A stretch of 39,753 nt of DNA from Bacteroidales bacterium (GTDB lineage: Bacteria; Bacteroidota; Bacteroidia; Bacteroidales; PUMT01). The notes under the pieces were generated by a model. It did no database searches. It was given only the letters and a program-made list of their open reading frames with translations, and had not been told where the DNA came from. Numbering within the stretch: the stretch's first letter is position 1; every line of letters starts with the position of its first letter. Made by a program: the position numbers and the translations under genes. This document shows positions 13,120-30,543 of the stretch, in pieces. Location of the stretch: the NCBI GenBank assembly GCA_007131165.1, contig SLRB01000262.1, forward strand, positions 1 to 39,753, in the 5' to 3' direction.

Positions 13120-13437
13120 CTACAGGCAATCAAGACTTTCAAACAGAATTCTGCCTCTCCGCCGGGAAACAGGAATCCTGTAGTCATGAACACAGGCAAA
13201 CAGCTGGGTTCCGTAATACCTCAGGGCAGAAACAGCTTCATTATTTACCAGGTAGCTCCGGTGAACCCTGCTGAACTTGTCATCCGGCAGGATACCTTCA
13301 ATCCTGTTCAGCGGAAGATCAACAACCTTCTGTTGCCGGTTCTTCATCACCATGAGCGAATAGCCGTTATCGCTCTCGAAGTAGAGGATGCGCCGGAGTA
13401 CTGCCGGGCACAGGAACCATTCCTTTTTGTTATCCAT
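13120..13437 (-). CDS. Stand-alone LytTR DNA-binding domain protein
   Basis: 105 aa. RVHRSYLVN and RIPVSRRR are LytTR hallmarks. There is no receiver or sensor domain. Confidence 0.75.
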   Translation of the reverse strand: MDNKKEWFLCPAVLRRILYFESDNGYSLMVMKNRQQKVVDLPLNRIEGILPDDKFSRVHRSYLVNNEAVSALRYYGTQLFACVHDYRIPVSRRRGRILFESLDCL

Positions 13438-13685: not shown

Positions 13686-14090
13686 CTATGCAGATAGTTC
13701 AGCATCATCCTCCACCCGGCAGAGAATGTCCATAAGCACCCCCCTCCTGCGTCTGGAAACCGGAATGCGGTTTTTTCCGGAGATTGATATATAGTCGGCG
13801 CCGGAACGGTATCTGCCTGCAGCATCAAGGTTTACAAGGTAATTCCTGTGGCAACGGAAAAACTTCTTCTTACAAAGTTTTTGTTCAATTTTTTTGAGCG
13901 ACACCTGTACACAGGTTTGATGTCCTCCAGAGAAGACGATCCGGGTGATATCATTGTTGTGATGGCAAAACAATATCTCATCCTGGTCAATCTTCACGGC
14001 ACCGGTGGCATCTGTGAGCCAGAGCCCGGGTAATGATGACCTGGGCGCTGACCGGCGCCTTGGATGTGACAGGAACCTTTTATTTGTCAT
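13686..14090 (-). CDS. Stand-alone LytTR DNA-binding domain protein with Arg-rich N-terminal tail
   Basis: FFRCHRNYLVN and RIPVSRRRR motifs. The ATG at 14090 (MTNKRF) is preferred over the track start at 14222. Length is 134 aa. Confidence 0.7.
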   Translation of the reverse strand: MTNKRFLSHPRRRSAPRSSLPGLWLTDATGAVKIDQDEILFCHHNNDITRIVFSGGHQTCVQVSLKKIEQKLCKKKFFRCHRNYLVNLDAAGRYRSGADYISISGKNRIPVSRRRRGVLMDILCRVEDDAELSA

Positions 14091-14621
14091 GATCTCCGGT
14101 AAATTAACAAGAAAAAGCGTTATCACAATTGACTGAAAAAACAAATAACAATTCCGGAAACCTGTGAACCATGATGCACTGTTGTTACCGGCCAACCCCC
14201 GTAAGACACTCAAAAGACACACAGGCTCCTGTTATGAGGTGCGCCAAATCCTGATTTGTGACACAGGTTTTCTGTTAATAACCGGCAAAATTTATACTAA
14301 CAAAAACTCTCTGCAAAATTTTATTTCGCTGTATTTCTGCAAATTAATATTAATGCCGGCTGTTACTAACCCGTTGAAATAATGTTGAAAAAATGTGAGG
14401 CCAGGTGCAGAAAAACACCCCGGGTTTTCCGGCCTGCATTTATGTGTGCTTACCCGCAAGATCTCGTGCAGCGGGGCTGAAACCCTAAAGCACATACCAA
14501 AAAACAAAAAATATGTATCTTGGTGCCCTGTAAAAATATGATCACTTAACCACCAAAACACTGCAATATGATTTTGCGTAATACCTGCGTTACTAAAGCC
14601 TTAAAACACCCTGCAGCGATA

Positions 14622-16166: not shown

Positions 16167-16242
16167 AAACGTTGTAATCATACAAATTTTGGTTCCATGC
16201 TTTAGCTAAATTTTGTCAGGTTAAAAAACACTGTTGAACCAG

Positions 16243-17718
16243 ATGAGCAATCAACCCAGAAACCCTTCATTGATCCAGGCAATAATACCTGTCTTATTCT
16301 TAATAGCCTTTCTTACCCTGAACGTCTACTTCTTTGGCGATGACACACTCTCGGGAGCAAATCAGATTGCCCTGCTTCTGGCTGCTGCAATAGGTGGTAT
16401 TATCGCTGTTTACCTTGGCCACAACTGGTACGATGTGAGGAAAAAGATCGTTCAGAGCATAGGCTCGGCAATGCCTTCAATAATGATACTCCTCCTTATC
16501 GGGTCACTGGCGGGAACATGGCTTCTCAGCGGAGTAGTGCCTGCCATGATATATTACGGATTGCAAATTTTAAACCCCTCGATATTCCTGCTGGCCTGCG
16601 TTGTAGTGTCGGCTTTGGTTTCAGTTGCAACAGGCAGTTCCTGGTCGACAGTAGCAACGATTGGTATCGCTTTGCTGGGAATAGGCAACGCGATGGGATT
16701 CAACGAAGGTATGGTTGCAGGGGCAATCATATCGGGGGCCTATTTCGGCGACAAGATGTCGCCGCTGTCAGATACCACAAACCTGGCTCCCGCGATGGCA
16801 GGAACCGACCTGTTTACCCATATCAGGTATATGGCCCTGACAACCGGGCCATCCATATTCATAACCCTGATCATATTTATGGTTATCGGTTTCTTTTTCA
16901 GACCGGAAGGTGATGCCGCTATCGTACAGGCCACACTTAAAGCAATAGATAGCAGTTTCAACATCACCCCGTTGCTTTTCATCGTTCCTGTGGCACTGGT
17001 AACTATAATTATTAATAAAGTGCCTCCCCTGCCATCACTGCTGGCAGGGACTCTCCTGGGGGCTGTTTTTGCCCTTATATTCCAGCCCCAGATAATTGAA
17101 CAGGTTTCAGGCATAACCGATAACTACCTTAACGCATCATATATAGCAGTCATGAAAAGCATGTACGGCAGGATATCCATAGTTACAGCCGATCCCCAGG
17201 TTAACGACCTGCTCAGTACAGGGGGAATGGCGGGTATGCTTAACACCATATGGCTGATAATGACTGCGATGATTTTCGGTGGAGTCATGGAAGCAGCAGG
17301 CATGCTTGTGAAAATCACCAACAGCCTTATGCGGTTTGCAAGAACGACAGGGTCGCTGGTAGCAACAACCGTAAGCACCTGCCTGTTTTTCAATATAACG
17401 GCATCAGACCAGTACATATCAATAGTGGTGCCGGGCAGGATGTTTGCAAAGACATTCAGGGAGCGCGGACTAAAGCCGGAGGTACTCAGCCGCACACTGG
17501 AGGACTCGGGCACTGTAACTTCTGTCCTTATACCGTGGAACACATGCGGGGCAACACAGTCAGCTGTATTGGGAGTACCCACAATCGCCTATCTTCCCTG
17601 GGCATTTTTCAATATAATCAGTCCATTTATGACAATATTCATGGCAGCCTTCAACATAAAGATAAGGCGACTGACTGATGAAGGTGAAGGGAGACGCATT
17701 GAGATGGACGAAGAGTAA
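16243..17718 (+). CDS. nhaC: Na+/H+ antiporter, NhaC family
   Basis: About 491 aa, polytopic (more than 10 hydrophobic segments), with overall resemblance to NhaC-family antiporters. The ATG at 16243 is preferred over the TTG at 16234. Confidence 0.7.
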   Translation: MSNQPRNPSLIQAIIPVLFLIAFLTLNVYFFGDDTLSGANQIALLLAAAIGGIIAVYLGHNWYDVRKKIVQSIGSAMPSIMILLLIGSLAGTWLLSGVVPAMIYYGLQILNPSIFLLACVVVSALVSVATGSSWSTVATIGIALLGIGNAMGFNEGMVAGAIISGAYFGDKMSPLSDTTNLAPAMAGTDLFTHIRYMALTTGPSIFITLIIFMVIGFFFRPEGDAAIVQATLKAIDSSFNITPLLFIVPVALVTIIINKVPPLPSLLAGTLLGAVFALIFQPQIIEQVSGITDNYLNASYIAVMKSMYGRISIVTADPQVNDLLSTGGMAGMLNTIWLIMTAMIFGGVMEAAGMLVKITNSLMRFARTTGSLVATTVSTCLFFNITASDQYISIVVPGRMFAKTFRERGLKPEVLSRTLEDSGTVTSVLIPWNTCGATQSAVLGVPTIAYLPWAFFNIISPFMTIFMAAFNIKIRRLTDEGEGRRIEMDEE

Positions 17719-17784: not shown

Positions 17785-20217
17785 TCAGGACAACTCAGGG
17801 TATACGGACGGATCTGACCGGTGCATTATACCGTATGCCAGTTCAAACAGGTCTTCAGCACTGGGATTTGAAAAGTAGTCACCGTCAGTTGTATATGCAG
17901 TCCTGTGATCCCTGCCCGTAAGTGTCCGGGGTTCCGAATCAAGCCAGTAAAAACCACCCCTTTCTTCAATGACCTGTTGCATCATGTATGCGGTGCCCCC
18001 GCCCGGCACATCTTCGTCAAAAAAGATTATCCTGCCGGTTTTTTGAAGCGACTTTATTATCAGGTTTGGTTTATCAAAAGGCAACAACGTCTGGACATCA
18101 ATAAGTTCGGCCGAAATACCAAATTCAGCAAGTTGCTCAGCCGCCTCCAGAGCAATTCTAACGCATGACCCGTAGGTTACAACCGTAACATCATCCCCCT
18201 CCCTTAGTACTTCGGGTATACCGAGAGGTACAGAGTATTCACCGGTATTTTCCGGCTTTCTTTCTTTCAGCCGGTAACCATTAAGCGGTTCAATAACAAT
18301 AGCCGGGTCCTCCCCCTTAAGCAGCGTATTATAGAAACCGGCAGCCTGTGTCATATTTCTCGGCACACAAACATATACACCTCTTATTGAATTAATGATC
18401 ATGCTAACGGGCGATCCGGCGTGCCATATACCCTCAAGCCTGTGGCCCCTGGTCACTACTATCACCGGAGCTGACTGACCACCCCTGGTGCGATAGTGTG
18501 TTGTGGCGAGGTCATCACTGAATGTCTGCAATGCATATAAAAGATAATCGAGATATTGTATTTCAGCCACCGGCCTGAGTCCCCTGAGCGCCATCCCTAT
18601 TCCCTGGCCAAGGATAGTAGTTTCTCTTATTCCTGTGTCGGCAACGCGCAGCTCACCATATTTCTGCTGAAGTCCTTCGTATGATTGATTCACACCACCT
18701 ATATTCCCGGTATCTTCACCAAAAATAAATACCCTGGGATCCCTCCCCAGTGCAGCATCCCAAAACTCCCGCAAAATCTCCCGTCCCGGTACCAGGGGAG
18801 AGTGATCGTCATAGACAGCAGGTATACCCTGAACATTGAGTGCCGAAAATTCAGATTCGTTATATAAGTGAGTGTTGTACCTTTCAGCATTGTCTTCGCG
18901 GTTCCGCTGCAGCCAGACGGAAAGATCGCGCTGAAGCTCCTCCCTTATTTCACAATCGGCACATACATGCCGGAGTATCTTCCTTGCTGAGCTGATATTA
19001 TCTTTCCGAATAGGCGATACAATTTTTTTCAGCTCCCCGGTAACAGCACCAACTTTGTCAATTCCCTCCCTTTTGCAGATGCAGCTCCGGTTGTCAATGA
19101 TCTTCACCAGGGCATCCCTCTCAACCAGCACCGGCCTGGTATACAATCTCCATGCCTCTTTCCTTGCCTCCCTGGTTTCATCAAGCGCTTCCTTCTCCGC
19201 AGCGTCAAGATCTGAATCACCGGCAAGCCCTGATGAAATTATCCACTGACGCATTTTCACAAGCGGGTCATGATCCTTCTCCCACTGCAGGCGCCCGGGC
19301 GATTTATACCGTTCATGAGAGCCCGATGTCGAATGGCCGAGAGGCTGGGTCATCTCATCAACATGAAATACCACGGGAACATGCTCACGCCTGCAGACAT
19401 CGACACCTTCGGCAAACATCCTGCAAAGACCGGGATAATCCCATCCCCTGCCTTTCATGACAACTATTCCCGGATTGCCGTCTGTGCGCTCGAAACCCTT
19501 AAGAGCTTCCGAAATACTGTCTTTGGCAGTCTGGTACTTCCTGGGTACGGAAATTCCGTATCCATCATCCCAAATTGCCAAAGCCATTGGAACCTGAAGT
19601 ACGGCAGCCGCATTTATAGTTTCCCAGAAATGGCCTTCCGAAGTGCTTGCATCGCCAATGGTGCCGAACGCTACCTCATGGCCTTTGTTTGTAAAATTTG
19701 TAAAATGATGAAGTTCGGAGACATTCCGGAAAAGAGATGATGCACAAGCCAGTCCCAGCAGCCTGGGCATCTGACCGGCAGTGGGTGATATATCGGCCGA
19801 TGAGTTCTTCTGCTTCATAAGGTTGCGCCAGGTACCGTCGTCATTGAGGCTTTTAGTAGCAAAGTGGTTATTGAATGACCGTCCGGCGTTGGATGGATTA
19901 AGCTCAGGATCGGTCTCTCCATAAAGCTGTGAAAAAAACTCCCTGGCACTTAAAAGTCCGGCAGCCATCATAAAAGTCTGATCCCTGTAATATCCCGATC
20001 GCCAGTCACCGTTCCTGAACTGTTTCGCAAAAGCTATCTGTGCAATCTCCTTGCCATCACCAAATATCCCGAATTTGGCCTTTCCCGAAAGCACTTCCCT
20101 GCGGCCTGTTATACTCAGGTTACGGCTTAAATGTGCCAGCTTGTAATCATTGAGAACCTCTTTTTTGAAATCCTCATATGACAAGCCGGAATTGTTATCT
20201 GCCAGCCTACTTTCCAT
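17785..20217 (-). CDS. Fused alpha/beta E1 component of a thiamine-diphosphate-dependent 2-oxoacid (branched-chain-type) dehydrogenase
   Basis: 810 aa. The N-terminal half has a TPP-binding GDASTSEGHFWETINAA motif. The C-terminal half is a transketolase-like pyrimidine-binding and C-terminal domain (FGEDTG..GGV, VTYGS). Confidence 0.8.
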   Translation of the reverse strand: MESRLADNNSGLSYEDFKKEVLNDYKLAHLSRNLSITGRREVLSGKAKFGIFGDGKEIAQIAFAKQFRNGDWRSGYYRDQTFMMAAGLLSAREFFSQLYGETDPELNPSNAGRSFNNHFATKSLNDDGTWRNLMKQKNSSADISPTAGQMPRLLGLACASSLFRNVSELHHFTNFTNKGHEVAFGTIGDASTSEGHFWETINAAAVLQVPMALAIWDDGYGISVPRKYQTAKDSISEALKGFERTDGNPGIVVMKGRGWDYPGLCRMFAEGVDVCRREHVPVVFHVDEMTQPLGHSTSGSHERYKSPGRLQWEKDHDPLVKMRQWIISSGLAGDSDLDAAEKEALDETREARKEAWRLYTRPVLVERDALVKIIDNRSCICKREGIDKVGAVTGELKKIVSPIRKDNISSARKILRHVCADCEIREELQRDLSVWLQRNREDNAERYNTHLYNESEFSALNVQGIPAVYDDHSPLVPGREILREFWDAALGRDPRVFIFGEDTGNIGGVNQSYEGLQQKYGELRVADTGIRETTILGQGIGMALRGLRPVAEIQYLDYLLYALQTFSDDLATTHYRTRGGQSAPVIVVTRGHRLEGIWHAGSPVSMIINSIRGVYVCVPRNMTQAAGFYNTLLKGEDPAIVIEPLNGYRLKERKPENTGEYSVPLGIPEVLREGDDVTVVTYGSCVRIALEAAEQLAEFGISAELIDVQTLLPFDKPNLIIKSLQKTGRIIFFDEDVPGGGTAYMMQQVIEERGGFYWLDSEPRTLTGRDHRTAYTTDGDYFSNPSAEDLFELAYGIMHRSDPSVYPELS

Positions 20218-20254
20218 TGTTATCTGTTTTTCGTGATTTTATTGATAGCACCTA

Positions 20255-20262
20255 CAAATTTA
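20255..20262 (-). promoter_or_regulatory. -7 promoter box TAAATTTG (TAnnTTTG) for the E1 gene
   Basis: The plus strand reads CAAATTTA. The box is 38 nt upstream of the ATG at 20217. Confidence 0.4.
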
Positions 20263-20352
20263 ATAAGAATAATTCCAATGGTTTGTTCAAAACCCTCTGA
20301 TTAATCCTGTAATAAAACCCGCCTGCATTTTTGACTTGGCAAAGATTAGCGT

Positions 20353-20360
20353 TAAATTTG
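20353..20360 (+). promoter_or_regulatory. -7 promoter box TAAATTTG (TAnnTTTG) for the micro-protein/AI-2E permease pair
   Basis: Exact match ending 22 nt upstream of the ATG at 20383. Confidence 0.5.
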
Positions 20361-20382
20361 CAACAAGTATACCTCATGGACA

Positions 20383-20601
20383 ATGAAAGAGTATCTTCTC
20401 ATCCTGGCAACAGCCATTGTACTGATGGCATTGATATTACTGGGATTGTCGGTCAGCATGCTTCTGAAAAAGAACGGCAGGTTCCCGGTCACCTCCATTG
20501 GAAGAAACAAGGAGATGCGAAAACGCGGCATTACCTGTGTAAAACATGATGAGATGCTTTGTGAAGGTAAAGGGAAAGCCGGTGGTTCATGCTGTACCTG
20601 A
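20383..20601 (+). CDS. 72-aa single-TM, 4-Cys micro-protein; divergent paralog of the NqrM-like ORF at 21927
   Basis: It has an ATG start with its own TAnnTTTG box. An N-terminal TM is followed by LLKKNGRF. It aligns without gaps to ORF 21927..22109 over about 59 residues (shared LSV, G.F, GI.C, E..C). Cys are at positions 52, 60, 70 and 71. Confidence 0.6.
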   Translation: MKEYLLILATAIVLMALILLGLSVSMLLKKNGRFPVTSIGRNKEMRKRGITCVKHDEMLCEGKGKAGGSCCT

Positions 20602-20661
20602 AAATCCCGGCAGATCAACCGGAGGGATAAAGCCGGTTATTTACCTAAGTACAAACCCGGT

Positions 20662-21759
20662 ATGACAAATGGAAAGAAAATACTTCTGTACCCCGCTCTC
20701 ACCCTGATTGCCGTATATTTTTTATTTACCGGGCTTGTTAAGGCCGAATCTTTCCTTGTTCCGCTTATTACCGCCATGGTTCTTGCATTTCTAATGTTCC
20801 CCATAGCAAACAGACTGGAAAAATGGGGAATACCCAGGGTTCTGGCTACAATTGCATCACTTTTGATACTGATTATTGTAATCGGGACCTACGTGACAAT
20901 AATATTTTCCCAGATCAAGGGTTTTGCTGACGACTGGGAGGAAATTCAGGTCAGGCTGGAGGAAACAATTGATGAAATATCAGAATATCTTATTGAAAAT
21001 ACACCCCTTGAAAAGGAGCACTTAAATATTTATACCCGCGATGATGATAAAAACAGGCAGGATGATGGAATTCCTCAAAATCCCGGCAATCATCGCCGGC
21101 AAGCATTAACCATGATGGGTGCCCTGTTTGGCTTTCTGACCCAGACGCTGATCATTATTGTATATATATTTCTGATTATTCATTTCAGACACAGGTTCAG
21201 GGAGTTTATCCTTAGATTCTTCCCTCAAAAAAAGCGGGAAGAAGTAGCCGGTATAATTTCAACATCATCTTCAGTGAGCAGAAGGTATCTGGCAGGCAAA
21301 TTATTGCTGATGGTTTTTCTTACCATTTTGTATTTTACGGGCCTTATAATTTCCGGGCTGGAAAACGCCTTGCTAATCAGCTTATTAGCTGCTGCACTAT
21401 CTATTATACCTGTTGTAGGCAATTTTATAGGGTATTGTCTTGCCCTCGCAGTGAGCCTGGTTACCACCGGGGGTATGGGAGCACTTATAGGGATTACCCT
21501 GACCTTTGCCATTGCACAGATTATCGACACCTATATTCTCCAGCCAATTGTACTTGGGCCCAAATTGGATGTTCACCCCTTCTTTATAATTCTTTCAGTC
21601 ATACTCGGATATGAAATATGGGGGATTATGGGAATGGTGCTTTCTATTCCGGTATTCGCGATGATCACGGTTGTTTGCCGCCATGTTCCGGCACTACACC
21701 CTTTCGGGTACCTTTTTAGCAAGGGTAGTGTTGACAGCCCCCGGGATAAACAGGAATAG
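20662..21759 (+). CDS. AI-2E family transporter (PerM/YdiK/TqsA, UPF0118) permease
   Basis: 365 aa with about 8 TM segments and a long polar loop after TM3, which is the typical AI-2E family layout. The C-terminal core has IPVVG and IxQPIVLG-like motifs. Confidence 0.75.
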   Translation: MTNGKKILLYPALTLIAVYFLFTGLVKAESFLVPLITAMVLAFLMFPIANRLEKWGIPRVLATIASLLILIIVIGTYVTIIFSQIKGFADDWEEIQVRLEETIDEISEYLIENTPLEKEHLNIYTRDDDKNRQDDGIPQNPGNHRRQALTMMGALFGFLTQTLIIIVYIFLIIHFRHRFREFILRFFPQKKREEVAGIISTSSSVSRRYLAGKLLLMVFLTILYFTGLIISGLENALLISLLAAALSIIPVVGNFIGYCLALAVSLVTTGGMGALIGITLTFAIAQIIDTYILQPIVLGPKLDVHPFFIILSVILGYEIWGIMGMVLSIPVFAMITVVCRHVPALHPFGYLFSKGSVDSPRDKQE

Positions 21760-21926
21760 CAATTCGCCATAGCTGGATCCACAGAAACTGATACCTGACG
21801 AATATCAGGGAATATTCAAACAATTGTTCACGACAAGTGTTATATAAATTAAAAGGGTTGGCTTTTAGCTGTCATGATAAAGCCGCTTCCAGCATATGAT
21901 GATCAATAACCCCGGTAATAAATAAT

Positions 21927-22109
21927 ATGGAAATACTAAACCTCATACTCATAACACTTGTTTTGGTGATGATTGCCGTTGGAGCACTCTCGGTGAGGCT
22001 TTTGTTTGTCAGAGACGGGAAATTTTCAGGAGGTTCATGCAGAAGCACCCCCGGCCTTGACCAAAAAGGTATAAAATGCGGATGTGGGAGAGAGGAGCCG
22101 TGCGACTAA
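21927..22109 (+). CDS. nqrM: (Na+)-NQR maturation factor NqrM (DUF539-like): single TM helix plus four Cys
   Basis: 60 aa. The TM helix is followed by GGSC...KCGCGREEPCD, with Cys at 38, 51, 53 and 59. This matches the published NqrM description (one TM, four conserved Cys). It lies next to apbE and the nqr operon. Confidence 0.7.
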   Translation: MEILNLILITLVLVMIAVGALSVRLLFVRDGKFSGGSCRSTPGLDQKGIKCGCGREEPCD

Positions 22110-22113
22110 ACGG

Positions 22114-23118
22114 TTACCTCCTGATCATATCTTTTATCCCATCGGTATGGGCAACAGCCGACATCCCGTTAATATCATAGATAAAGTAGGCCTCTATATC
22201 CGGATGGGATGATGCAAATTCCATACTCTCCTCAAGGCCCATTACCATAAACGCTGTTGCAAAAGCGTCGGCATCCATGGCTGTCGTGGTAACAACCGTG
22301 GCACTCAAAAGATTATGCCTTACGGGGTAGCCGGTGGAAGGGTCAATGGTATGGGCAAACCGCTGGCCGTCTTCAATGTAAAACCTCCGGTAATTGCCTG
22401 ATGTTGCGAGTGACGCGCCAGTTAAGTGAAGCACCTCCTGGAGCTCCCTGGACATGGCTGCCGGGTCGTCAACAGGCTTGTCTATTCCAATACGCCAGAG
22501 CTGGTCGTTCCGGTTGGTCCCTTTTACGCGTATCTCTCCCCCGACCTCTATCATATAATCGTTTATTCCCCTGGAATCAAAAAACCGGGCAACGACATCA
22601 ACCGTGTATCCTTTTGCAATGGCATTCATATCGAGCATTATCCTCTCATCATCTTTCACGATTAGCCCATCTTCAAGGCGCACTTTATGCCAGCCCGTGA
22701 AACCAAGAATACTGTCAACAAGCTCCGGCGTAATGTTTTCCCTTTCTGTAAACCCAAAGCCCCAGGCATTGACAAGAGGACCTACGGTTATATCAAAAGC
22801 ACCGCCGGTCTTTTCGGATATCTCCATTGCCCTTTCGAAAACGGCAACAAAATAATCATCGGGTCTGATCCCGGGTTCGCTGCGGTTTACTGCCGATATG
22901 ACCGAGCCGGGATTATAGATTGACATGGAATTGTCTATATACGCGAACAATTCCTTTATATCTTCATGATAATCAATCGAGTCGGGGGAATTATAGGCAA
23001 TATAATAGCTCGTCCCCTGGGTAAAGCCGTCGAGATACAGAAATGCCCTTTCACCTCCGTTATGGCAGGAGCTGAGAAAAACAACCGCAATAAAAACAAA
23101 TGAAATCCTATTTATCAT
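22114..23118 (-). CDS. apbE: FAD:protein FMN transferase (flavin transferase) ApbE, lipoprotein
   Basis: Lipobox FLSSC. Motifs are [14 protein letters not shown] and ATSGNYRRF...[10 protein letters not shown]. Its start overlaps the nqrF stop (ATGA). Confidence 0.9.
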
Positions 23119-24371
23119 CCTCCAAAATCATCAAATTCAACCATTTCATCAGGCACACCCAGATCATAAAGCATCTTCATGACAGCATCATTCATCATAG
23201 GTGGTCCGCACAGGTAATATTCAATATCATCAGGATCTTCGTGCCTGCTCAGATAATTATCGTAAACCACCTGGTGGATAAAGCCCGTGTAACCATCCCA
23301 GTTATCCTCGGGCTTGGGCTCGGACAGAGCAATGTTAAAAGAGAAGTTCGGGAACTCCTTTTCAATTTTCCTGAAATCTTCTTCATAAAACACCTCCCTC
23401 AGCGAGCGGGCACCGTACCAGTATGACACCTTCCTGCCGGTTTTCATGGTATGGAACAGATGGAATATGTGCGATCTCAGGGGTGCCATACCGGCTCCGC
23501 CACCAATATATACCATCTCATTATCCGTATCCTTTATAAAGAACTCTCCATAGGGACCCGATATTGTAACCTTGTCACCCGGCTTCCTCGAAAAAATATA
23601 GGACGAACATATTCCCGGATTTACATCCATGAAAGCACCTTTTGCCCTGTCCCAGGGTGGGGTCGCGATCCGTATATTCAGCATTATGATGTTACCCTCC
23701 GCAGGATGGTTGGCCATTGAGTAGGCCCGGTAGGTAGGTTCGGAGTTTTTCATCTTCAGGTCCCACATGTTGAACTGGTCCCATTCGTCACGAAAATTTT
23801 CCTCCACATCAATATCTTTAAAATCAACCTCAACTTTGGGAACATCAATCTGAATATAACCGCCCGACCTGAAATCAAGATCCTCGCCTTCTGGAAGCTT
23901 AACTACAAACTCCTTTATAAATGTAGCAACGTTTTTGTTACTGACAACCTCACACTCCCACTTTCTTATCCCCATAACTTCTTCAGGAACCTTGATCTTC
24001 ATATCCTCCCTGATCTTCACCTGGCAACCCAGCCTCCACTTCTCCATCTGTTCCCGTCTGGTAAAAAAGTCCTTTTCGGTCGGCAGTATAGACCCGCCTC
24101 CTTCAACAACCTGGCACTTGCACATACCACATGTTCCTCCGCCGGCACATGCAGAAGGCAGGTAGATACTGTTATCTGAAAGCGTTGAGAGAACAGTTGA
24201 TCCCGGGTTGACTGTCAGTTCTTTCTCTTCATTGATAGTAAGCTTTACTTCTCCTGAAGGAGTCAGTTTGGATTTTGCGTAGAGCAGAACCGATACAAAG
24301 GTCAGTATAACCAGATAGAAGACGGCAATGCTGATTATTATAACTAATCCCGGTGATGCTGATAATATCAT
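23115..24371 (-). CDS. nqrF: Na+-translocating NADH:quinone oxidoreductase subunit F
   Basis: N-terminal TM, 2Fe-2S motif [15 protein letters not shown] motif RAYSMAN, and an NADH-binding domain GGGAGMAP. Confidence 0.95.
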
Positions 24372-24405
24372 TTTTGTTTTCTTTAATTTTGTGTTAACGC
24401 CTGTA

Positions 24406-25023
24406 TTACAAACTTATCCCCATAAAGCTCATAAATGCTATACCCATAAGCCCGGTAACAATAAAAGTAATCCCCAGTCCGCGCAACGGCCCCGGCACAT
24501 TTGAGTACCTGATCTTTTCACGTATTGCCGCGATACCGACAATGGCAAGATAAAACCCTGCACCCGAACCCAGTCCGAATGACGCAGCCTCGGCAATATT
24601 GGCATACTCTCTTTCCTGCATAAACAGAGATCCGCCCAGTATTGCACAGTTAACAGCAATAAGCGGCAGGAATATACCAAGCGAGGAGTAGAGGGCGGGA
24701 GCAAATTTTTCAACCGTCATCTCCACGAGCTGCACCATAGATGCAATAACCGCTATAAACATGATAAAACTGAGAAAGCTCAGGTCGACTGTTTCAAACC
24801 CGGAGCCAATCCAGGCCATTGCTCCGGCACTCAGAAAGTAGTTTTCAATGAGATAGTTAACCGGGACGGTTATCCCCAAAACAAAAACCACCGCAATTCC
24901 CAGTCCGTTAGCGGTACTCACGGTTTTAGACACTGCCAGGTATGAGCACATGCCCAGAAAATAGGCAAACACCATGTTGTCTATGAACACCGACCTTACG
25001 AATATATTTATCAATCCTTCCAT
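24406..25023 (-). CDS. nqrE: Na+-NQR subunit E
   Basis: 205 aa with 6 TM. The conserved Cys contexts GMCSYLAV and AVNCAILGG are present. Confidence 0.93.
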
Positions 25024-25035
25024 ACTTCCGGTAAT

Positions 25036-25689
25036 TTATTTAGATTCAATAAGTTTCCTGTTCCGGGATCTTTGCACCCATATGATGACCCCGACCGTTA
25101 TCAGGGCCATAGGGGGCAATATCATAAACCCGTTGTTCTCATAACCGATATTGAACAGCCCGAGCTTCTCCATTACAGGGTAATCCCACAAGGTTCCCGA
25201 ACCAAGAAGCTCCCTGAAAAAAGCAACAACGATAAGTATCCAGCCATATCCTGCTGCATTGCCTATCCCGTCAAGGAAAGACGGCCACACCCTGTTTCCC
25301 AGTGCAAATGCCTCAAGTCTTCCCATAATGATACAGTTGGTTATTATCAGCCCAACGAATACAGAAAGCTGCCTGCTCACGTCATAAAGGAATGCCTTTA
25401 AAACCTGGTCAACCAGGATAACGAGCGAAGCTATCACCACAAGCTGTACAATGATCCTTATTCTGGATGGAATAGTTTTCCGGAGCAGCGATATTATAAC
25501 GTTCGCCGCACCCATAACCGCAACCACGGCAACAGCCAGCACAACAGCCGGCTCAAGCTTCACGGTAACTGCCAGTGCCGAACATATCCCGAGAACCTGA
25601 ACGGTTATAGGATTCTCGTCGTTCAGGGGTGTACTTAAGAGTTTTATGTTCTTTGCCGAAAACATCGGCTCCTTTTCCGTTTTACTCAT
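25036..25689 (-). CDS. nqrD: Na+-NQR subunit D
   Basis: 217 aa. The conserved Cys contexts GICSALAV and TNCIIMGR are present. Confidence 0.93.
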   Translation of the reverse strand: MSKTEKEPMFSAKNIKLLSTPLNDENPITVQVLGICSALAVTVKLEPAVVLAVAVVAVMGAANVIISLLRKTIPSRIRIIVQLVVIASLVILVDQVLKAFLYDVSRQLSVFVGLIITNCIIMGRLEAFALGNRVWPSFLDGIGNAAGYGWILIVVAFFRELLGSGTLWDYPVMEKLGLFNIGYENNGFMILPPMALITVGVIIWVQRSRNRKLIESK

Positions 25690-25691
25690 CG

Positions 25692-26417
25692 CTAAATATT
25701 TTTCCGGTTTTCTAAATATCTTTTGTAACTGCCCAGTACATCATACAGCATCTCCTCAACGCCCTTGCTGGTAATGGTCCCGCCCGAAATACCGTCTACG
25801 TTATGGTCGCCGGGGGGAACAGTACCTGGCTTTGTTATTCTGACAGACACGAATTCACCCTCGTCGTCAAACAGTTTTTTCCCCCTGAACCGCTCTTCAA
25901 AGAAGGGTGCGCTGATCTCTGCTCCCAATCCGGGAGTCTCACTCTCGTGGTCTAAAATAACGCCGAAAATCGTATTAAAGTCATCCTCGAGCGCAACATA
26001 CCCGAAAAGCGGCCCCCATAAGCCTCTTCCGTGGACAGGGAAAATATAATTCTCGCGGCCGTCGTCATCTCTTGCGACAAATACAGGCAGGTTGCGCTCC
26101 TCAAGCGGTTTGCGCATCTCGTCCCTCATATTTACGGCAAACGCATCAACATCCTCCTGTCTTTCACCAAGATAATCTATAACGTAACTATCTACTATGT
26201 ATCTTTCATATTCCTCTTCCACATAAGCATTCCGGTCGCGCACTTCTGATACCTGTTCGGCTTTATCTACGCTTCTCAAAATATCAAGCTTTTTGGCTAT
26301 CTCAATATTCAGCTCCTGGTAGGGCCTCAGGACCGTTGCAACCACCGAAAGCACGGCCGCTACAATGACAACCATTGCCGAGGAGTAAAGGAAAATATAG
26401 GTGTTACTCTGCTTCAT
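25692..26417 (-). CDS. nqrC: Na+-NQR subunit C (covalent FMN)
   Basis: 241 aa with an N-terminal TM and the flavinylation motif DGISGGT. Confidence 0.92.
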   Translation of the reverse strand: MKQSNTYIFLYSSAMVVIVAAVLSVVATVLRPYQELNIEIAKKLDILRSVDKAEQVSEVRDRNAYVEEEYERYIVDSYVIDYLGERQEDVDAFAVNMRDEMRKPLEERNLPVFVARDDDGRENYIFPVHGRGLWGPLFGYVALEDDFNTIFGVILDHESETPGLGAEISAPFFEERFRGKKLFDDEGEFVSVRITKPGTVPPGDHNVDGISGGTITSKGVEEMLYDVLGSYKRYLENRKNI

Positions 26418-26430
26418 TGCTCGTTATGTT

Positions 26431-27597
26431 TTATTTATTTGTACCTGCTGCGGCCCTCTTAAGCCTTCGTCTTATATTTGCCTGCATCACGTTATGGTCT
26501 ATCAGGGGTGCAAACACATTCATAAACAGGATGGCCAGCATCATCCCTTCAGGGTAGGCAGGATTGAGGACCCTGATGAGAATAGCCAGGAAGCCAACAA
26601 GGAACCCGTAAATGTACTTACCCCGCTCTGTTTGTGAAGCAGTTACAGGGTCGGTTGCCATATAAACCGCACCAAAGGCAAATCCACCCATGATCAGGTG
26701 CTCCCAGGCCGGGATCTCCATAAACGGATTAACAGCAAAAATATTAAGGATAAATCCCATAACCAGTCCACCGGCAAATACCGACGCCATGATCTTCATG
26801 CTCCCCACACCTGTAACCCACAATATGAGTCCTCCTATAAGTATTGCCAGGGCAGAGGTTTCGCCTATCGAACCGGGTATAGTACCGAGGAACATAGACA
26901 TTGATGAGGGGATAGCCTCAACATTCCCAAGAGAAGCACTGGCAAGCGGCGTAGCCCCGGAAAAACCGTCAACTATTCCCTCGCCCCGCAGAAGTCCGCT
27001 AATCCAGACATAATCGCCCGACATATAGGTGGGATATGCAAAAAACAAAAAAGCCCGTGCCGTGAGTGCAGGGTTCAGTATGTTCATGCCGGTGCCGCCG
27101 AAAACTTCCTTGCCTATAATTACGGCAAAGACTGTGGCAACCGAAACCATCCATAGGGGAATATCCACCGGAACGATCAGCGGTATAAGCATGCCGGTAA
27201 CAAGAAATCCCTCATTGACCTCATGCCCCCTTATCTGTGCAAAGATGAACTCAACGGCAAGACCGCTCACATAGGAAACAACAACAATCGGCAGAACCTT
27301 TACCAGTCCGTGCAGAAATTCCTGCCAGAACCCCGCATCAACTCCCGTAGCTACAAAATGCTGGTATCCAACGTTCCACATCCCGAACAGAAGTGTTGGG
27401 ATCATTGCAACCACAACAATAATCATGGTTCTTTTCATATCGATGCTGTCACGTATATGAGCCCCCCTTGATGTGACCCTGTCGGGTACGAACAGAAAGG
27501 TCTCAAATGCATCAAATGTTGAGTGCAGCATCTCAAATCGGCCGCCCTTCTGAAAGTGTGGCTTTATTTTATCAATCTGTTTTCTGATTAACTTCAC
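26431..27597 (-). CDS. nqrB: Na+-NQR subunit B (covalent FMN)
   Basis: 388 aa with flavinylation motif DGFSGAT. The only in-frame start after the upstream stop that keeps the conserved N-terminus is the GTG at 27597. Confidence 0.92.
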   Translation of the reverse strand: MKLIRKQIDKIKPHFQKGGRFEMLHSTFDAFETFLFVPDRVTSRGAHIRDSIDMKRTMIIVVVAMIPTLLFGMWNVGYQHFVATGVDAGFWQEFLHGLVKVLPIVVVSYVSGLAVEFIFAQIRGHEVNEGFLVTGMLIPLIVPVDIPLWMVSVATVFAVIIGKEVFGGTGMNILNPALTARAFLFFAYPTYMSGDYVWISGLLRGEGIVDGFSGATPLASASLGNVEAIPSSMSMFLGTIPGSIGETSALAILIGGLILWVTGVGSMKIMASVFAGGLVMGFILNIFAVNPFMEIPAWEHLIMGGFAFGAVYMATDPVTASQTERGKYIYGFLVGFLAILIRVLNPAYPEGMMLAILFMNVFAPLIDHNVMQANIRRRLKRAAAGTNK

Positions 27598-27650
27598 TTG
27601 TTATTTGGTTTGTTTTGTCAATATCGTTTTAAAGTTCCCGTACAAACTTG

Positions 27651-29003
27651 TTAACTCGTCTCCTTTATCATAAGCTCGATACCGCTCCGGAGTATTGTCT
27701 GGACCTCGGTCTTGGAAGTACAGACATATTCACAGAGGGCCATGTCCTCCTCAACCACTTCATATATCCCCAGGTTTTCCATCTTGTCAATATCTTCAAC
27801 CATAATGGCCTTCACCAGCTGTTGCGGGATAAGATCCATAGGCAAAACTTTCTCATACTCACCGGTTATGACAAAAGCCCTTTCTCCGCCGTTGTAGTTG
27901 GTATCATGCCTGTACTCCTTTCCGGGCATAAGCCATGAAAAGAATGTGCGTGACGCACTGAACCTGTTAAGCCCGGGGGATGCCCATCCCATGAAACGGT
28001 GATGATCCCCCTCTGGTATCACTGTTACCTGCGAGTCGTAAAAACCGATGAAACCGTCTGATGGAATTTTGGAGCCCGTCAGGACATTTCCGCTGATAAA
28101 CCTGTTTTTGCCTTCAACAATATTATCCTTTACAAGGTTTTCGACCGATGCCCCCATCACTGTGCGATAATAGCGGGGGTTGACAACCTCTGATCCGGTA
28201 AGCGCAACAATTCGTGAAAAATCGACAATGCCGTTGAGGAACAGGCGGCCGAAAACAAGAATATCCTGGGGATTAATGTACCAAACAGTGCCGTTTTTAT
28301 GAACAGGATCAAGATGGTGAATATGCACGCCGACATTACCAGCCGGGTGCGGCCCGGAAAAATAGTTGACCTCAACTCCGTTTACCCCTGTGAATACATC
28401 AGATGGGGGATAGTCGCCGTTAAGGTTAAGGTAAACTTTACCACCGGTGAGTTTCCTTAGTACATCGATCCCTGCCCTGAATTCGTTTCCGCTGTCCTGC
28501 ATCAGAAAATCATAGTCAGGCGCCAGGGGTGCAGTATCGAACCCGGAAATAAAAATCGACCGCGGCGTATCATCCGGCCTGGGAATAATACCATAGGGGC
28601 GCTGGCGGAGCAGGGGCCACAGGCCGCTTTTCAGGAGGCGTTCTACAATGGCTTCACGTTCCATGGAGCCGGGTTCTGCCTTGCCAAAATTCTCGTAATC
28701 GATACGGTCGTCCCGTTTGATAACAACTTCCATGATCTTTCGGCGTTCACCGCGGTTAACTGCGACAACCCGGCCGCTTACCGGCGAGGTAAACATAACA
28801 TCGGGATTGTACTTGTCAAAAAACAGGGGAGTTCCTGCTTTTACAGCATCATCGGGGCGAACCAGCATTTTTGGCCTTATGCCGTGAAAATCTAATGGTT
28901 TTAACGCGAACTTACCGGGCAGACCGGGATTTACCAGCACTTTTTCAGCTTTGCCCTTCAACGGGATGTTAAGACCTTTTTTAAGCTTAATTACCTTCGA
29001 CAT
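27651..29003 (-). CDS. nqrA: Na+-NQR subunit A
   Basis: 450 aa. The N-terminus MSKVIKLKKGLNIPLKGKAE is typical of NqrA. It is the first gene of the nqrABCDEF-apbE operon. Confidence 0.93.
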   Translation of the reverse strand: MSKVIKLKKGLNIPLKGKAEKVLVNPGLPGKFALKPLDFHGIRPKMLVRPDDAVKAGTPLFFDKYNPDVMFTSPVSGRVVAVNRGERRKIMEVVIKRDDRIDYENFGKAEPGSMEREAIVERLLKSGLWPLLRQRPYGIIPRPDDTPRSIFISGFDTAPLAPDYDFLMQDSGNEFRAGIDVLRKLTGGKVYLNLNGDYPPSDVFTGVNGVEVNYFSGPHPAGNVGVHIHHLDPVHKNGTVWYINPQDILVFGRLFLNGIVDFSRIVALTGSEVVNPRYYRTVMGASVENLVKDNIVEGKNRFISGNVLTGSKIPSDGFIGFYDSQVTVIPEGDHHRFMGWASPGLNRFSASRTFFSWLMPGKEYRHDTNYNGGERAFVITGEYEKVLPMDLIPQQLVKAIMVEDIDKMENLGIYEVVEEDMALCEYVCTSKTEVQTILRSGIELMIKETS

Positions 29004-29250: not shown

Positions 29251-30543
29251 ATGAAAAATGTTCAGCTTTGCCCTCCGGTATTAAAACTCCTCATTGCCGT
29301 GCTGCTGTTGTCTGCCAGACCGGAGGCAAAAGTATCGGGAAACTGGTTTTATGAGGATTATGTCTACACCGACAACATAAAGACAGTCCGTATGCACGTC
29401 AAAGGGTGGGAAATGTCTTACCCGGTAATTGAGCTCGGAAGCGGCGAAAGGCTGCATTTCAGCTTCGACGATCTCGACGGCGATGTAAAGAATTACCAGT
29501 ACCAGATCATCCATTGCAACGCCGACTGGACGCCCTCATCCCTTTTCCCTTCAGACTATATCGAAGGCTTTTATGAAAACAACCTTAGCAATTACAGGTT
29601 TTCTTTCAATACCTTTGTTCAATACACCCACTATTCACTTGAGATACCGAACCATGATGTCAGCCTGAAAATACCCGGCAACTATATCATCAAAGTATAC
29701 GAAGATTTTGATGCCGATAATACGGTGCTTACCAGGAGATTCATGGTGAGCCAGCCAGGTGTAAATATTGTGGCCAGGGTACACAGACCACAACTTACCC
29801 GTTATTATGACACACACCAGCAGCTGACATTCAGCATCAGGCATCCTGAACTTAACATTACCGACCCCATATCAGAGCTGTATGTAACAGTCATGCAGAA
29901 CGGGCGGGCAGACAATGTCGCAGGTCCGCTCAGGCCAATGTACATAAGGGACAGGGAAATTGTATACGAGCACGAAGAGGAGCTGGTATTCCCGGCCGGA
30001 AATGAATTCCGCAACTTTGACACCAAGAGCATGCGGTATATTACCGAGTTCATAAAGAGCATTGAATTCTCAGGCGGGATAAACCATGTTGAGCTGCATC
30101 CTTCACAGCCCAGGCAGTTTAGCAGATATTTCTCTCATCATGACATAAACGGGCGGTTCCTTATCAGGAACGAAGAGGGGCGCAACCCGTCATATGACGC
30201 CGACTATGTGATGGTTTGGTTCACACTTCCCTGGGATACCCCTTTCGACAACGGCAATGTATATGTACTGGGTGCTCTGAGCGACTGGAACTTTTACCAT
30301 TGGAACACAATGGTATATAATTTTGAAAGCAGGTCTTACGAACTCGGCATGCTCCTCAAGCAAGGTTACTATAACTACCAGTTCGTTTTCAGGGAAGACG
30401 GCGCAACAACAGCCGACCACACCCTTTTTGAGGGCAACTTCTTTGAGGCCGGGAACGACTACCTGATTATGGTCTACCACCGTCCGCCAGGCAGCCGTTA
30501 CGACCGGCTGGTAGGTACGCGGCAGGTGAGTGCTCACAACTGA
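29251..30543 (+). CDS. DUF5103-like protein (family annotated as type IX secretion system plug protein, N-terminal domain)
   Basis: 430 aa with a signal peptide. DNIKTVRMH..GWEMSYPVIELGSGERLHFSFDDL....KNYQYQIIHCNADW matches my memory of the DUF5103 N-terminal consensus. This is a recalled family assignment, not a search result. Confidence 0.5.
   Translation: MKNVQLCPPVLKLLIAVLLLSARPEAKVSGNWFYEDYVYTDNIKTVRMHVKGWEMSYPVIELGSGERLHFSFDDLDGDVKNYQYQIIHCNADWTPSSLFPSDYIEGFYENNLSNYRFSFNTFVQYTHYSLEIPNHDVSLKIPGNYIIKVYEDFDADNTVLTRRFMVSQPGVNIVARVHRPQLTRYYDTHQQLTFSIRHPELNITDPISELYVTVMQNGRADNVAGPLRPMYIRDREIVYEHEEELVFPAGNEFRNFDTKSMRYITEFIKSIEFSGGINHVELHPSQPRQFSRYFSHHDINGRFLIRNEEGRNPSYDADYVMVWFTLPWDTPFDNGNVYVLGALSDWNFYHWNTMVYNFESRSYELGMLLKQGYYNYQFVFREDGATTADHTLFEGNFFEAGNDYLIMVYHRPPGSRYDRLVGTRQVSAHN

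Follow-up and report, generated by a model that had tools for sequence, protein, structure and literature searches.

Two small open reading frames, here designated p72 (72 amino acids, aa) and p60 (60 aa), are found in a 39,753 nucleotide (nt) stretch of a Bacteroidales bacterium (contig SLRB01000262.1, assembly GCA_007131165.1), referred to as the window. The pair is situated tail-to-tail with apbE and the nqrFEDCBA operon, which encodes the NADH:quinone oxidoreductase that translocates Na+ (Na+-NQR), and a gene of the AI-2E/PerM permease family is found between its two members (Table 1). A preliminary description made from the sequence alone had reported the two open reading frames and the intervening AI-2E gene, and all three are confirmed in coordinates and strand, the permease by a PF01594 match of 182 bits. 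Of the interpretation given there, the conservation of both peptides, their paralogy and their tie to apbE-nqr are upheld; a permease module and membership in the NqrM family PF04400 are not. What is new is probably an unannotated NqrM-like pair in Bacteroidota, NqrM itself being the known kind of factor, rather than a new transporter-linked module.

The p72 peptide chain has a transmembrane (TM) helix at residues 2–28 followed by the core GRFPxT(S/H)(I/V)GxNKEMRKRGIxC, with Cys at positions 52, 60, 70 and 71. p60 has a TM helix at residues 2–29 and then GKFSGGSC-x12-C-x-C-x5-CD, with Cys at 38, 51, 53 and 59. Homologues of p72 (n = 56, 38–100% identity) show invariant F34, P35, N42, E44, K47, G49, I50 and C52, and C60 is nearly invariant. 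C52 is the sole invariant Cys of the p72 family; most p72-type proteins carry at least four Cys: besides C52 they usually have C60, and they end in a C-terminal cluster (CC, CxxC or larger) that is not fixed in position. In the 24 close homologues of p60, the FSGGSC block and C38, C51, C53 and C59 are all invariant. Pairwise ratios of nonsynonymous to synonymous substitution rates (dN/dS) against relatives are 0.10–0.26 for p72 and 0.11–0.26 for p60, and intact reading frames are found in more than 100 orthologues. Judged by this conservation, p72 and p60 are real genes under purifying selection.

BLASTP aligns p72 with p60 over 59 residues without a gap, with 16 identities (27%, E-value = 5e-6), in close agreement with the roughly 17 identities over about 59 residues previously counted by hand. 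Comparison of the two family profiles by hhalign gives a probability of 98.3% (E-value = 2e-14, 65 columns). The hhalign score of 78.4 compares with 41.5 ± 4.2 when the tail columns of one family are permuted, and none of 100 permutations reaches the observed value, thus the homology extends beyond the hydrophobic helix. An exhaustive profile search with the p60-family profile also returns p72-type proteins. By these comparisons p72 and p60 are true paralogues, both single-TM, Cys-rich micro-proteins. The Cys rearrangement reported earlier is also correct: C52 and C60 of p72 align with C51 and C59 of p60, equivalents of p60 C38 and C53 are missing from p72, and the p72 residues C70 and C71 are situated in a GGSCC tail.

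The 12-mers that encode GGSC in the two genes are nearly identical (GGTGGTTCATGC and GGAGGTTCATGC) and are found at 20581–20592, in the p72 C-terminus, and at 22029–22040, in the membrane-proximal segment of p60. They were considered as a trace of gene conversion and dropped, as 1–4 such pairs are estimated in 1.9 kb, i.e. approximately the chance level.

AlphaFold2 models show the helices (2–28 in p72, 2–29 in p60) with a predicted local distance difference test score (pLDDT) of 90–95 and the tails with 36–65; low confidence in the tails is as expected for folds that depend on a metal. Basic residues directly follow the TM helix in both peptides, which by the positive-inside rule places the C-terminal Cys tails, as predicted, in the cytoplasm. 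On the profile evidence, p72 and p60 are members of a large superfamily of Bacteroidota for which neither Pfam nor NCBIfam has a model. Their homologues are labelled 'hypothetical protein' in the source records, and for annotation pipelines the two represent unrecognised families that are now either labelled in this way or not called.

Table 1. Features of the p72–p60 locus and its neighbours, in window coordinates
Feature	Position	Strand	Evidence
NhaC-type Na+/H+ antiporter, upstream	16234–17718	+	PF03553, 182 bits
Fused E1 alpha/beta 2-oxoacid dehydrogenase-like gene, divergent from p72	17785–20217	-	E1_dh, Transket_pyr, Transketolase_C
Second TAnnTTTG copy, serving the divergent E1-like gene	20255–20262	-	
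TAnnTTTG motif TAAATTTG (Bacteroidota-type -7 promoter)	20353–20360	+	22 nt before p72 ATG
p72, 72-aa open reading frame	20383–20601	+	Open reading frame list, homologues, dN/dS
AI-2E/PerM-family permease, 365 aa	20662–21759	+	PF01594, 182.4 bits (cutoff 34.3), residues 13–341
p60, 60-aa open reading frame, NqrM-like	21927–22109	+	Open reading frame list, homologues, dN/dS
apbE (FAD:protein FMN transferase), convergent with p60	22114–23118	-	PF02424, 289.4 bits (cutoff 25.6)
nqrFEDCBA operon (Na+-NQR)	23115–29003	-	Translations and nqrB identity
nqrF	23115–24371	-	
nqrE	24406–25023	-	
nqrD	25036–25689	-	
nqrC	25692–26417	-	
nqrB	26431–27597	-	
nqrA	27651–29003	-	

Association with apbE and the nqr operon

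With each GTDB species represented by one genome, a pattern scan gave 383 genomes with a p72 relative, and the best 80 loci were examined. Counts of apbE refer to the 73 loci with at least 1.5 kb of downstream sequence and counts of nqr to the 68 loci with at least 4 kb. In 46 of the 73 species-level loci the next gene after the micro-protein gene or genes is a convergent apbE, and in 40 of the 68 apbE continues into nqrFEDCBA, so that the reported genomic association of the peptides with apbE-nqr holds. The apbE linkage is present in 10 of 17 p72 clusters (defined at 55% identity), while the upstream neighbour varies and may be the E1-like gene, NhaC or others: the E1-like gene is upstream of p72 in 18 of 74 genome loci and NhaC directly upstream in 21 of 74. 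Where genome loci contain both p72 and p60 and have enough flanking sequence, apbE is present in all 12.

A second scan, of metagenomes and seeded on the p60 motif, gave 30 loci with p60 42–85% identical. A p72-type gene is found 63–236 bp upstream of p60 in 24 of these, the remainder being mostly truncated contigs; the tandem pair is therefore old and the permease a late insertion in a single clade. The E1-like gene lies upstream in 16 of 19 metagenome loci. In most of the lineages linked to apbE-nqr (Rikenellaceae-like and others) p72 stands alone against apbE, with gaps down to 19 bp. Thus the paralogue with the permuted Cys is the general one. The preliminary description had the Cys pattern of p72 right in calling it a permuted copy of an NqrM-like protein; however, p72 is the member that is widespread and looks ancestral, and the NqrM-like p60 is patchy in occurrence. 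As reconstructed from these gene orders, p72 forms the conserved unit either together with a following p60 or on its own, tail-to-tail with apbE-nqrFEDCBA.

Five Tenuifilaceae-like loci (L014, L015, L021, L044 and L080) keep p72 and apbE with nqr not adjacent, and in Bacteroides finegoldii (L121) a p72 homologue with 33% identity is found two genes from a convergent apbE. Judged by gene order, the linkage to apbE, and with it to nqr, is strong and resistant to rearrangement.

At least three of the Tenuifilaceae-like loci also contain a very divergent third micro-protein with four Cys between p72 and apbE (L014:10298–10489, L021:10291–10491, L044:10292–10489). It has the pattern TM…KKK…C-x10-11-CGCG-x3-C, scores 19–22 bits with a p60 hidden Markov model (HMM) and was missed by tblastn.

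Resemblance to NqrM

The preliminary description assigned p60 to NqrM (DUF539, PF04400), the Na+-NQR maturation factor. Several features support the comparison. Like NqrM, p60 has an N-terminal TM helix, a few basic residues directly after it and a tail rich in Cys; the two also share a size of 60–80 aa and a gene position next to apbE and nqr. The nqrM genes annotated by RefSeq/GenBank in Ruegeria and Klebsiella have the equivalent position adjacent to apbE or nqr. The p60 tail reads G-S-C, 11–12 residues, C-x-C, 3–5 residues, (P)C-D, and so carries the NqrM layout GSC ... C-x(1-2)-C ... C. The AlphaFold2 models of both p72 and p60 display the NqrM architecture of a single N-terminal TM helix and a short soluble tail. 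However, the four-Cys layout is not found in p72, which is without two of the four NqrM Cys positions (those of GSC and the second Cys of C-x-C) and has additional Cys C-terminally, as CC or CxxC.

There are other differences. Identity to NqrM is approximately 20–25% and is concentrated in the TM helix. The GSCGG of NqrM is replaced by GGSC(R/Q)S in p60. p60 and p72 are convergent with apbE-nqr, whereas the NqrM gene is co-directional and downstream. In addition, it is the p72 type and not the NqrM-like p60 form that is widespread.

The PF04400 model gives no match, even at E ≤ 10, to p60, p72 or 24 + 36 family members. Nor does it match, at E ≤ 0.01, any of 146 remote relatives (the exhaustive profile search from which remote relatives were taken gave 245 proteins at E ≤ 1e-3). 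Scans of p60 and p72, of both families and of the 146 remote relatives against NCBIfam also gave no relevant match, including to any '(Na+)-NQR maturation NqrM' model. True NqrMs were represented by the annotated nqrM of Ruegeria TM1040 and Klebsiella pneumoniae and by GSCGG open reading frames of Neisseria and Aeromonas. Among the matches listed for relatives of the Ruegeria NqrM, 119 of 120 carry PF04400 (the exception is P0305), which indicates that the label works where it should. The assignment of p60 to NqrM is thus one of remote homology, not of family membership, and the Pfam check suggested earlier is negative for both peptides and for every relative tested, while true NqrMs do score. 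Three sources of true nqrM sequences (L085, L086 and L087; CP125156.1, NZ_CP119142.1 and NZ_AP026896.1) are listed in PLSDB as 'plasmids' and are chromosomes of 2–5 Mb from Klebsiella, Neisseria and Aeromonas, a labelling problem.

Profile comparisons show more similarity. With hhalign, a narrow p60 profile gives a probability of 33% against NqrM and the p72 profile 38%, the latter over the TM helix only. A 146-sequence superfamily profile gives 91%, and a 35-sequence p60-type profile against NqrMs of gamma- and betaproteobacteria gives 94% (E-value = 1.3e-7). The 94% alignment has GSC, C-x-C and PCD in register, and all four p60 Cys match those of Klebsiella, Aeromonas and Neisseria NqrM. An NqrM HMM run with filters off against 11,488 open reading frames places those of the p60/p72 family immediately after the true NqrMs, with the window p60 as the top non-NqrM match (18.4 bits, E-value = 9e-4). 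In the reciprocal search of the same set, the p60 HMM matches the Aeromonas NqrM with 20.9 bits.

Permutation of the NqrM tail limits these values. The observed score of 41.1 compares with a null of 34.8 ± 3.4, which 2 of 40 permutations reach, and in a second comparison 38.9 compares with 32.7 ± 2.5, reached by 3 of 100. The score comes mostly from the TM and juxtamembrane segment and is marginal beyond the helix (p ~0.05). Since the TM helix carries most of the score, the hhalign probabilities of 91–94% are not taken at face value. HMMs built from the NqrM tail only give no signal for p60 or p72, and for this reason homology is not claimed on the basis of the tail. By its architecture, its position and the spacing of its ligands, p60 is plausibly a remote homologue of NqrM; the TM helix, the four-Cys spacing and the apbE-nqr position of the original assignment stand, and the assignment to a Pfam or NCBIfam family does not.

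Two other families of small membrane proteins are comparable. The FeoB-associated Cys-rich membrane protein (PF12669), which occurs in Bacteroidota and Firmicutes and is presumed to have a role connected with iron, is likewise very small, has one TM helix and carries clustered Cys at its C-terminus. However, it gives sub-threshold matches in only 2 of 24 p60 relatives (E-value = 0.16), there is no feoB nearby, and its conserved motifs are different. CcoS/FixS (PF03597), a small assembly factor of respiratory complexes, is similar in concept: its gene adjoins a respiratory operon, and the single-TM product is required to insert a cofactor. Its target, however, is the cbb3 oxidase, and the sequences share no meaningful similarity (1 of 24 p60 relatives, E-value = 3.8).

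In the literature searched, NqrM is described for proteobacteria only, and the origin of NQR has been placed in Bacteroidota (PMC12174285). A paper on modelling of the Prevotella NQR mentions neither NqrM nor ApbE (PMC10739449). The literature search showed no paper that ties NqrM to Bacteroidota beyond incidental co-mentions, and assembly of the intramembrane Fe-S centre of NQR in Bacteroidota is unaddressed in the literature searched. The phylum, in which NQR is thought to have originated, has abundant members in gut, rumen and sediment, and the conserved p72/p60 pair beside apbE-nqr offers concrete and testable candidates for NQR assembly.

Possible role and alternatives

The interpretation favoured here, with a probability of roughly 0.55, is that p72 and p60 serve in NQR maturation by presenting Fe or an Fe-S unit to the NqrD/E site, and that they may form hetero-oligomers. 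Both peptides would be anchored by the TM helix, with their thiolate-rich tails at the cytoplasmic face of the membrane. The tails would bind Fe or an Fe-S unit and pass it to the Cys4 site that NqrD and NqrE form within the membrane, while ApbE would attach FMN to NqrB and NqrC. p60 would act through the retained NqrM ligand pattern GSC...C-x-C...C. p72 would supply C52 and C60, the remaining thiols coming from the variable C-terminal CC or CxxC cluster. Where both are present a hetero-oligomer may form; elsewhere p72 alone would have to suffice. The target Cys motifs named in the preliminary description, GICSALAV and NCIIMGR in NqrD and the Cys motif of NqrE, are present in the window translations. 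As a paralogue with permuted ligands, p72 could show which thiols matter in the hand-over of metal.

A broader proposal is put forward tentatively and is rather doubtful. The superfamily, with its TM helix, K-x-G-x-F and Cys-rich tail, may represent the ancestral NqrM stock, in the very phylum in which the origin of NQR has been placed. Bacteroidales would then mature the NqrD/E [2Fe-2S] centre, and perhaps that of RnfA/E, with a two-component or 'permuted-ligand' version in which p72 (universal Cys plus CC/CxxC) and p60 (classical NqrM ligands) act as a hetero-oligomeric Fe or Fe-S donor.

A number of observations weigh against a function in NQR maturation, among them the negative family searches and the marginal tail signal given above. 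Most of them are also points for a different explanation, that p72 and p60 are generic membrane-anchored Cys-rich micro-proteins (binding Zn or Fe, active in thiol-redox reactions, or a small subunit of another complex) whose adjacency to apbE-nqr is synteny inherited in part of Bacteroidales. The superfamily is large and no member is labelled NqrM. A p72-type gene is situated between prs (ribose-phosphate pyrophosphokinase) and der (a GTPase) in 27 of the 73 genome loci, one for each of 27 species, with no apbE or nqr within 10 kb. Eight of 11 metagenome p72-p60 pairs with enough flanking sequence have no apbE downstream, and one clade keeps E1-p72-p60 with variable downstream genes, i.e. there are E1-linked pairs without apbE or nqr. 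A remote member with 'GTC…CGCG' follows pfk-gapA. Homologues in Bacteroides, Parabacteroides and Phocaeicola have a single Cys, the universal C52, and in Bacteroides, Parabacteroides and Prevotella nigrescens neither apbE nor a micro-protein gene follows nqr.

A generic function is nevertheless rather unlikely. Adjacency to apbE outlasts change of the upstream gene, presence or absence of p60, insertion of the permease and separation from nqr, and proximity to apbE recurs in Bacteroides at 33% identity. Pure synteny rarely survives such rearrangement. In addition, all four p60 Cys align with those of NqrM.

The prs-der loci (e.g. L019, L020, L022, L031 and L074) are from Cryptobacteroides and other gut and rumen Bacteroidales, and their p72-type proteins have a five-Cys tail, C…C-x4-5-C-x2-C-x3-5-C. 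In L051, rnfA/E-like genes are found 8 kb away. The p72-like proteins with one Cys, annotated as 'hypothetical protein', are found at L121:4998–5231 (Bacteroides finegoldii), L122:4998–5216 (Parabacteroides distasonis) and approximately 4995–5210 of L126 (Phocaeicola massiliensis). An OmpH gene follows the single-Cys homologue in the annotated records of B. finegoldii and P. distasonis, and in the former it is followed in turn by a convergent apbE and mntP. An additional p60-type copy, truncated, with only three Cys and an altered C-terminus, is present at L118:9974–10213, 5.5 kb downstream of an intact p72-p60 pair and past a 1658-aa open reading frame. It is probably a pseudogene left by rearrangement.

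The micro-proteins might instead be partners of ApbE in flavinylation, e.g. tethering or regulating the flavin supply of periplasmic ApbE, and not Fe donors. In all the apbE-linked loci apbE is the immediate convergent neighbour, with nqr beyond it, and p72 stays by apbE where nqr is not adjacent, i.e. in the five Tenuifilaceae-like loci and in B. finegoldii. However, ApbE acts in the periplasm, and the window ApbE has a signal peptide of the lipoprotein type (…FLSSC) at its start; the Cys tails, in contrast, are predicted to lie in the cytoplasm. Neither p72 nor p60 has anything that resembles a flavin-binding motif, and in proteobacteria apbE and nqrM are adjacent as well despite their distinct functions. 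This explanation is considered improbable.

The permease requires separate treatment, as the preliminary description joined it with p72 in an undescribed module. Only 6 of 79 species-level loci (L001, L004 and L007–L010), all of one clade, have it between p72 and p60, as does one metagenome contig (L091). In relatives that are just as close (L002, L003, L005, L006 and L011, with p72 68–76% identical) the p72-p60 gap is 123–236 bp. By this distribution the permease is a late, lineage-specific insertion into the p72-p60 spacer within one clade. The spacer alignment with relatives that have no permease is too diverged to define insertion breakpoints. Matches to the NCBIfam equivalogs YtvI and CxpE are far below their cutoffs, and no specific substrate can be assigned to the permease.

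The promoter reported upstream of p72 is present. TAAATTTG is the sole + strand TAnnTTTG from 20200 to 22300, and a scan for this motif gave no copy in the 60 nt that separate p72 from the permease, a gap length that is also as first described, and none in the 167-nt gap between the permease and p60. Since TAnnTTTG is not enriched in the window (23 found vs 31.6 expected), the motif is weak evidence of a promoter. Scans for sigma-70 promoters and terminators gave background level only.

That p72 and the permease form a cotranscribed metal-handling unit is very improbable and, by gene distribution, already largely refuted: the short gap, the single TAnnTTTG upstream of p72 with none before the permease, and the retention of the arrangement in several related species, whose permeases have diverged to 52–87% identity, would agree with it, but the permease is missing at this position in 73 of the 79 species-level loci, in every metagenome locus retrieved with p60 except L091, in the close relatives with short spacers and in all other p72 subfamilies. 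The neighbourhood comparison suggested earlier thus ties the p72 family to apbE-nqr (apbE adjacent in 46 of 73 loci) and not to AI-2E genes (6 of 79), and the most eye-catching part of the preliminary description, a module that includes the permease, is lost.

A 13-nt direct repeat, GATAAAGCCG(G/C)TT, with 12 of 13 positions identical, brackets the permease gene at 20626–20638 and 21876–21888, one copy just upstream of the permease start and the other just upstream of the p60 start. It was not used as an insertion footprint, being at about the chance level in 1.9 kb (1–4 such pairs estimated).

Neighbouring genes and minor features

Against regions that carry an NqrB annotation in Bacteroides finegoldii, Parabacteroides and Prevotella nigrescens, the window nqrB shows 52–60% identity. 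The p72 and p60 proteins recur identically on one public contig of 45.8 kb. The nearest species-level genome is a Bacteroidales metagenome-assembled genome of the 'CSSed' series, in which p72 is 90% and p60 85% identical.

The stop codons of p60 (+) and apbE (-) are separated by 4 nt (22107–22116). There is no terminator-like hairpin between them, thus transcripts converging there would overlap. The p60/apbE junction is spanned by an imperfect inverted repeat of 16 nt, with its arms at 22019–22034 and 22116–22131. An Rfam scan of 19900–22400 gave nothing credible.

Two adjacent open reading frames, 13120–13437 (-) and 13686–14222 (-), have the appearance of LytTR-type DNA-binding proteins with no obvious receiver domain. 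The latter matches PF04397 with 58.7 bits; the former is assigned only on visual inspection of the translated sequence. A gene for a type IX secretion 'plug' protein (PF17116) at 29251–30543 (+) is divergent from nqrA in the window. The PF17116 gene is likewise divergent from nqrA in Parabacteroides distasonis (L083:5230–6498, annotated DUF5103), and is a second conserved neighbour of nqr.

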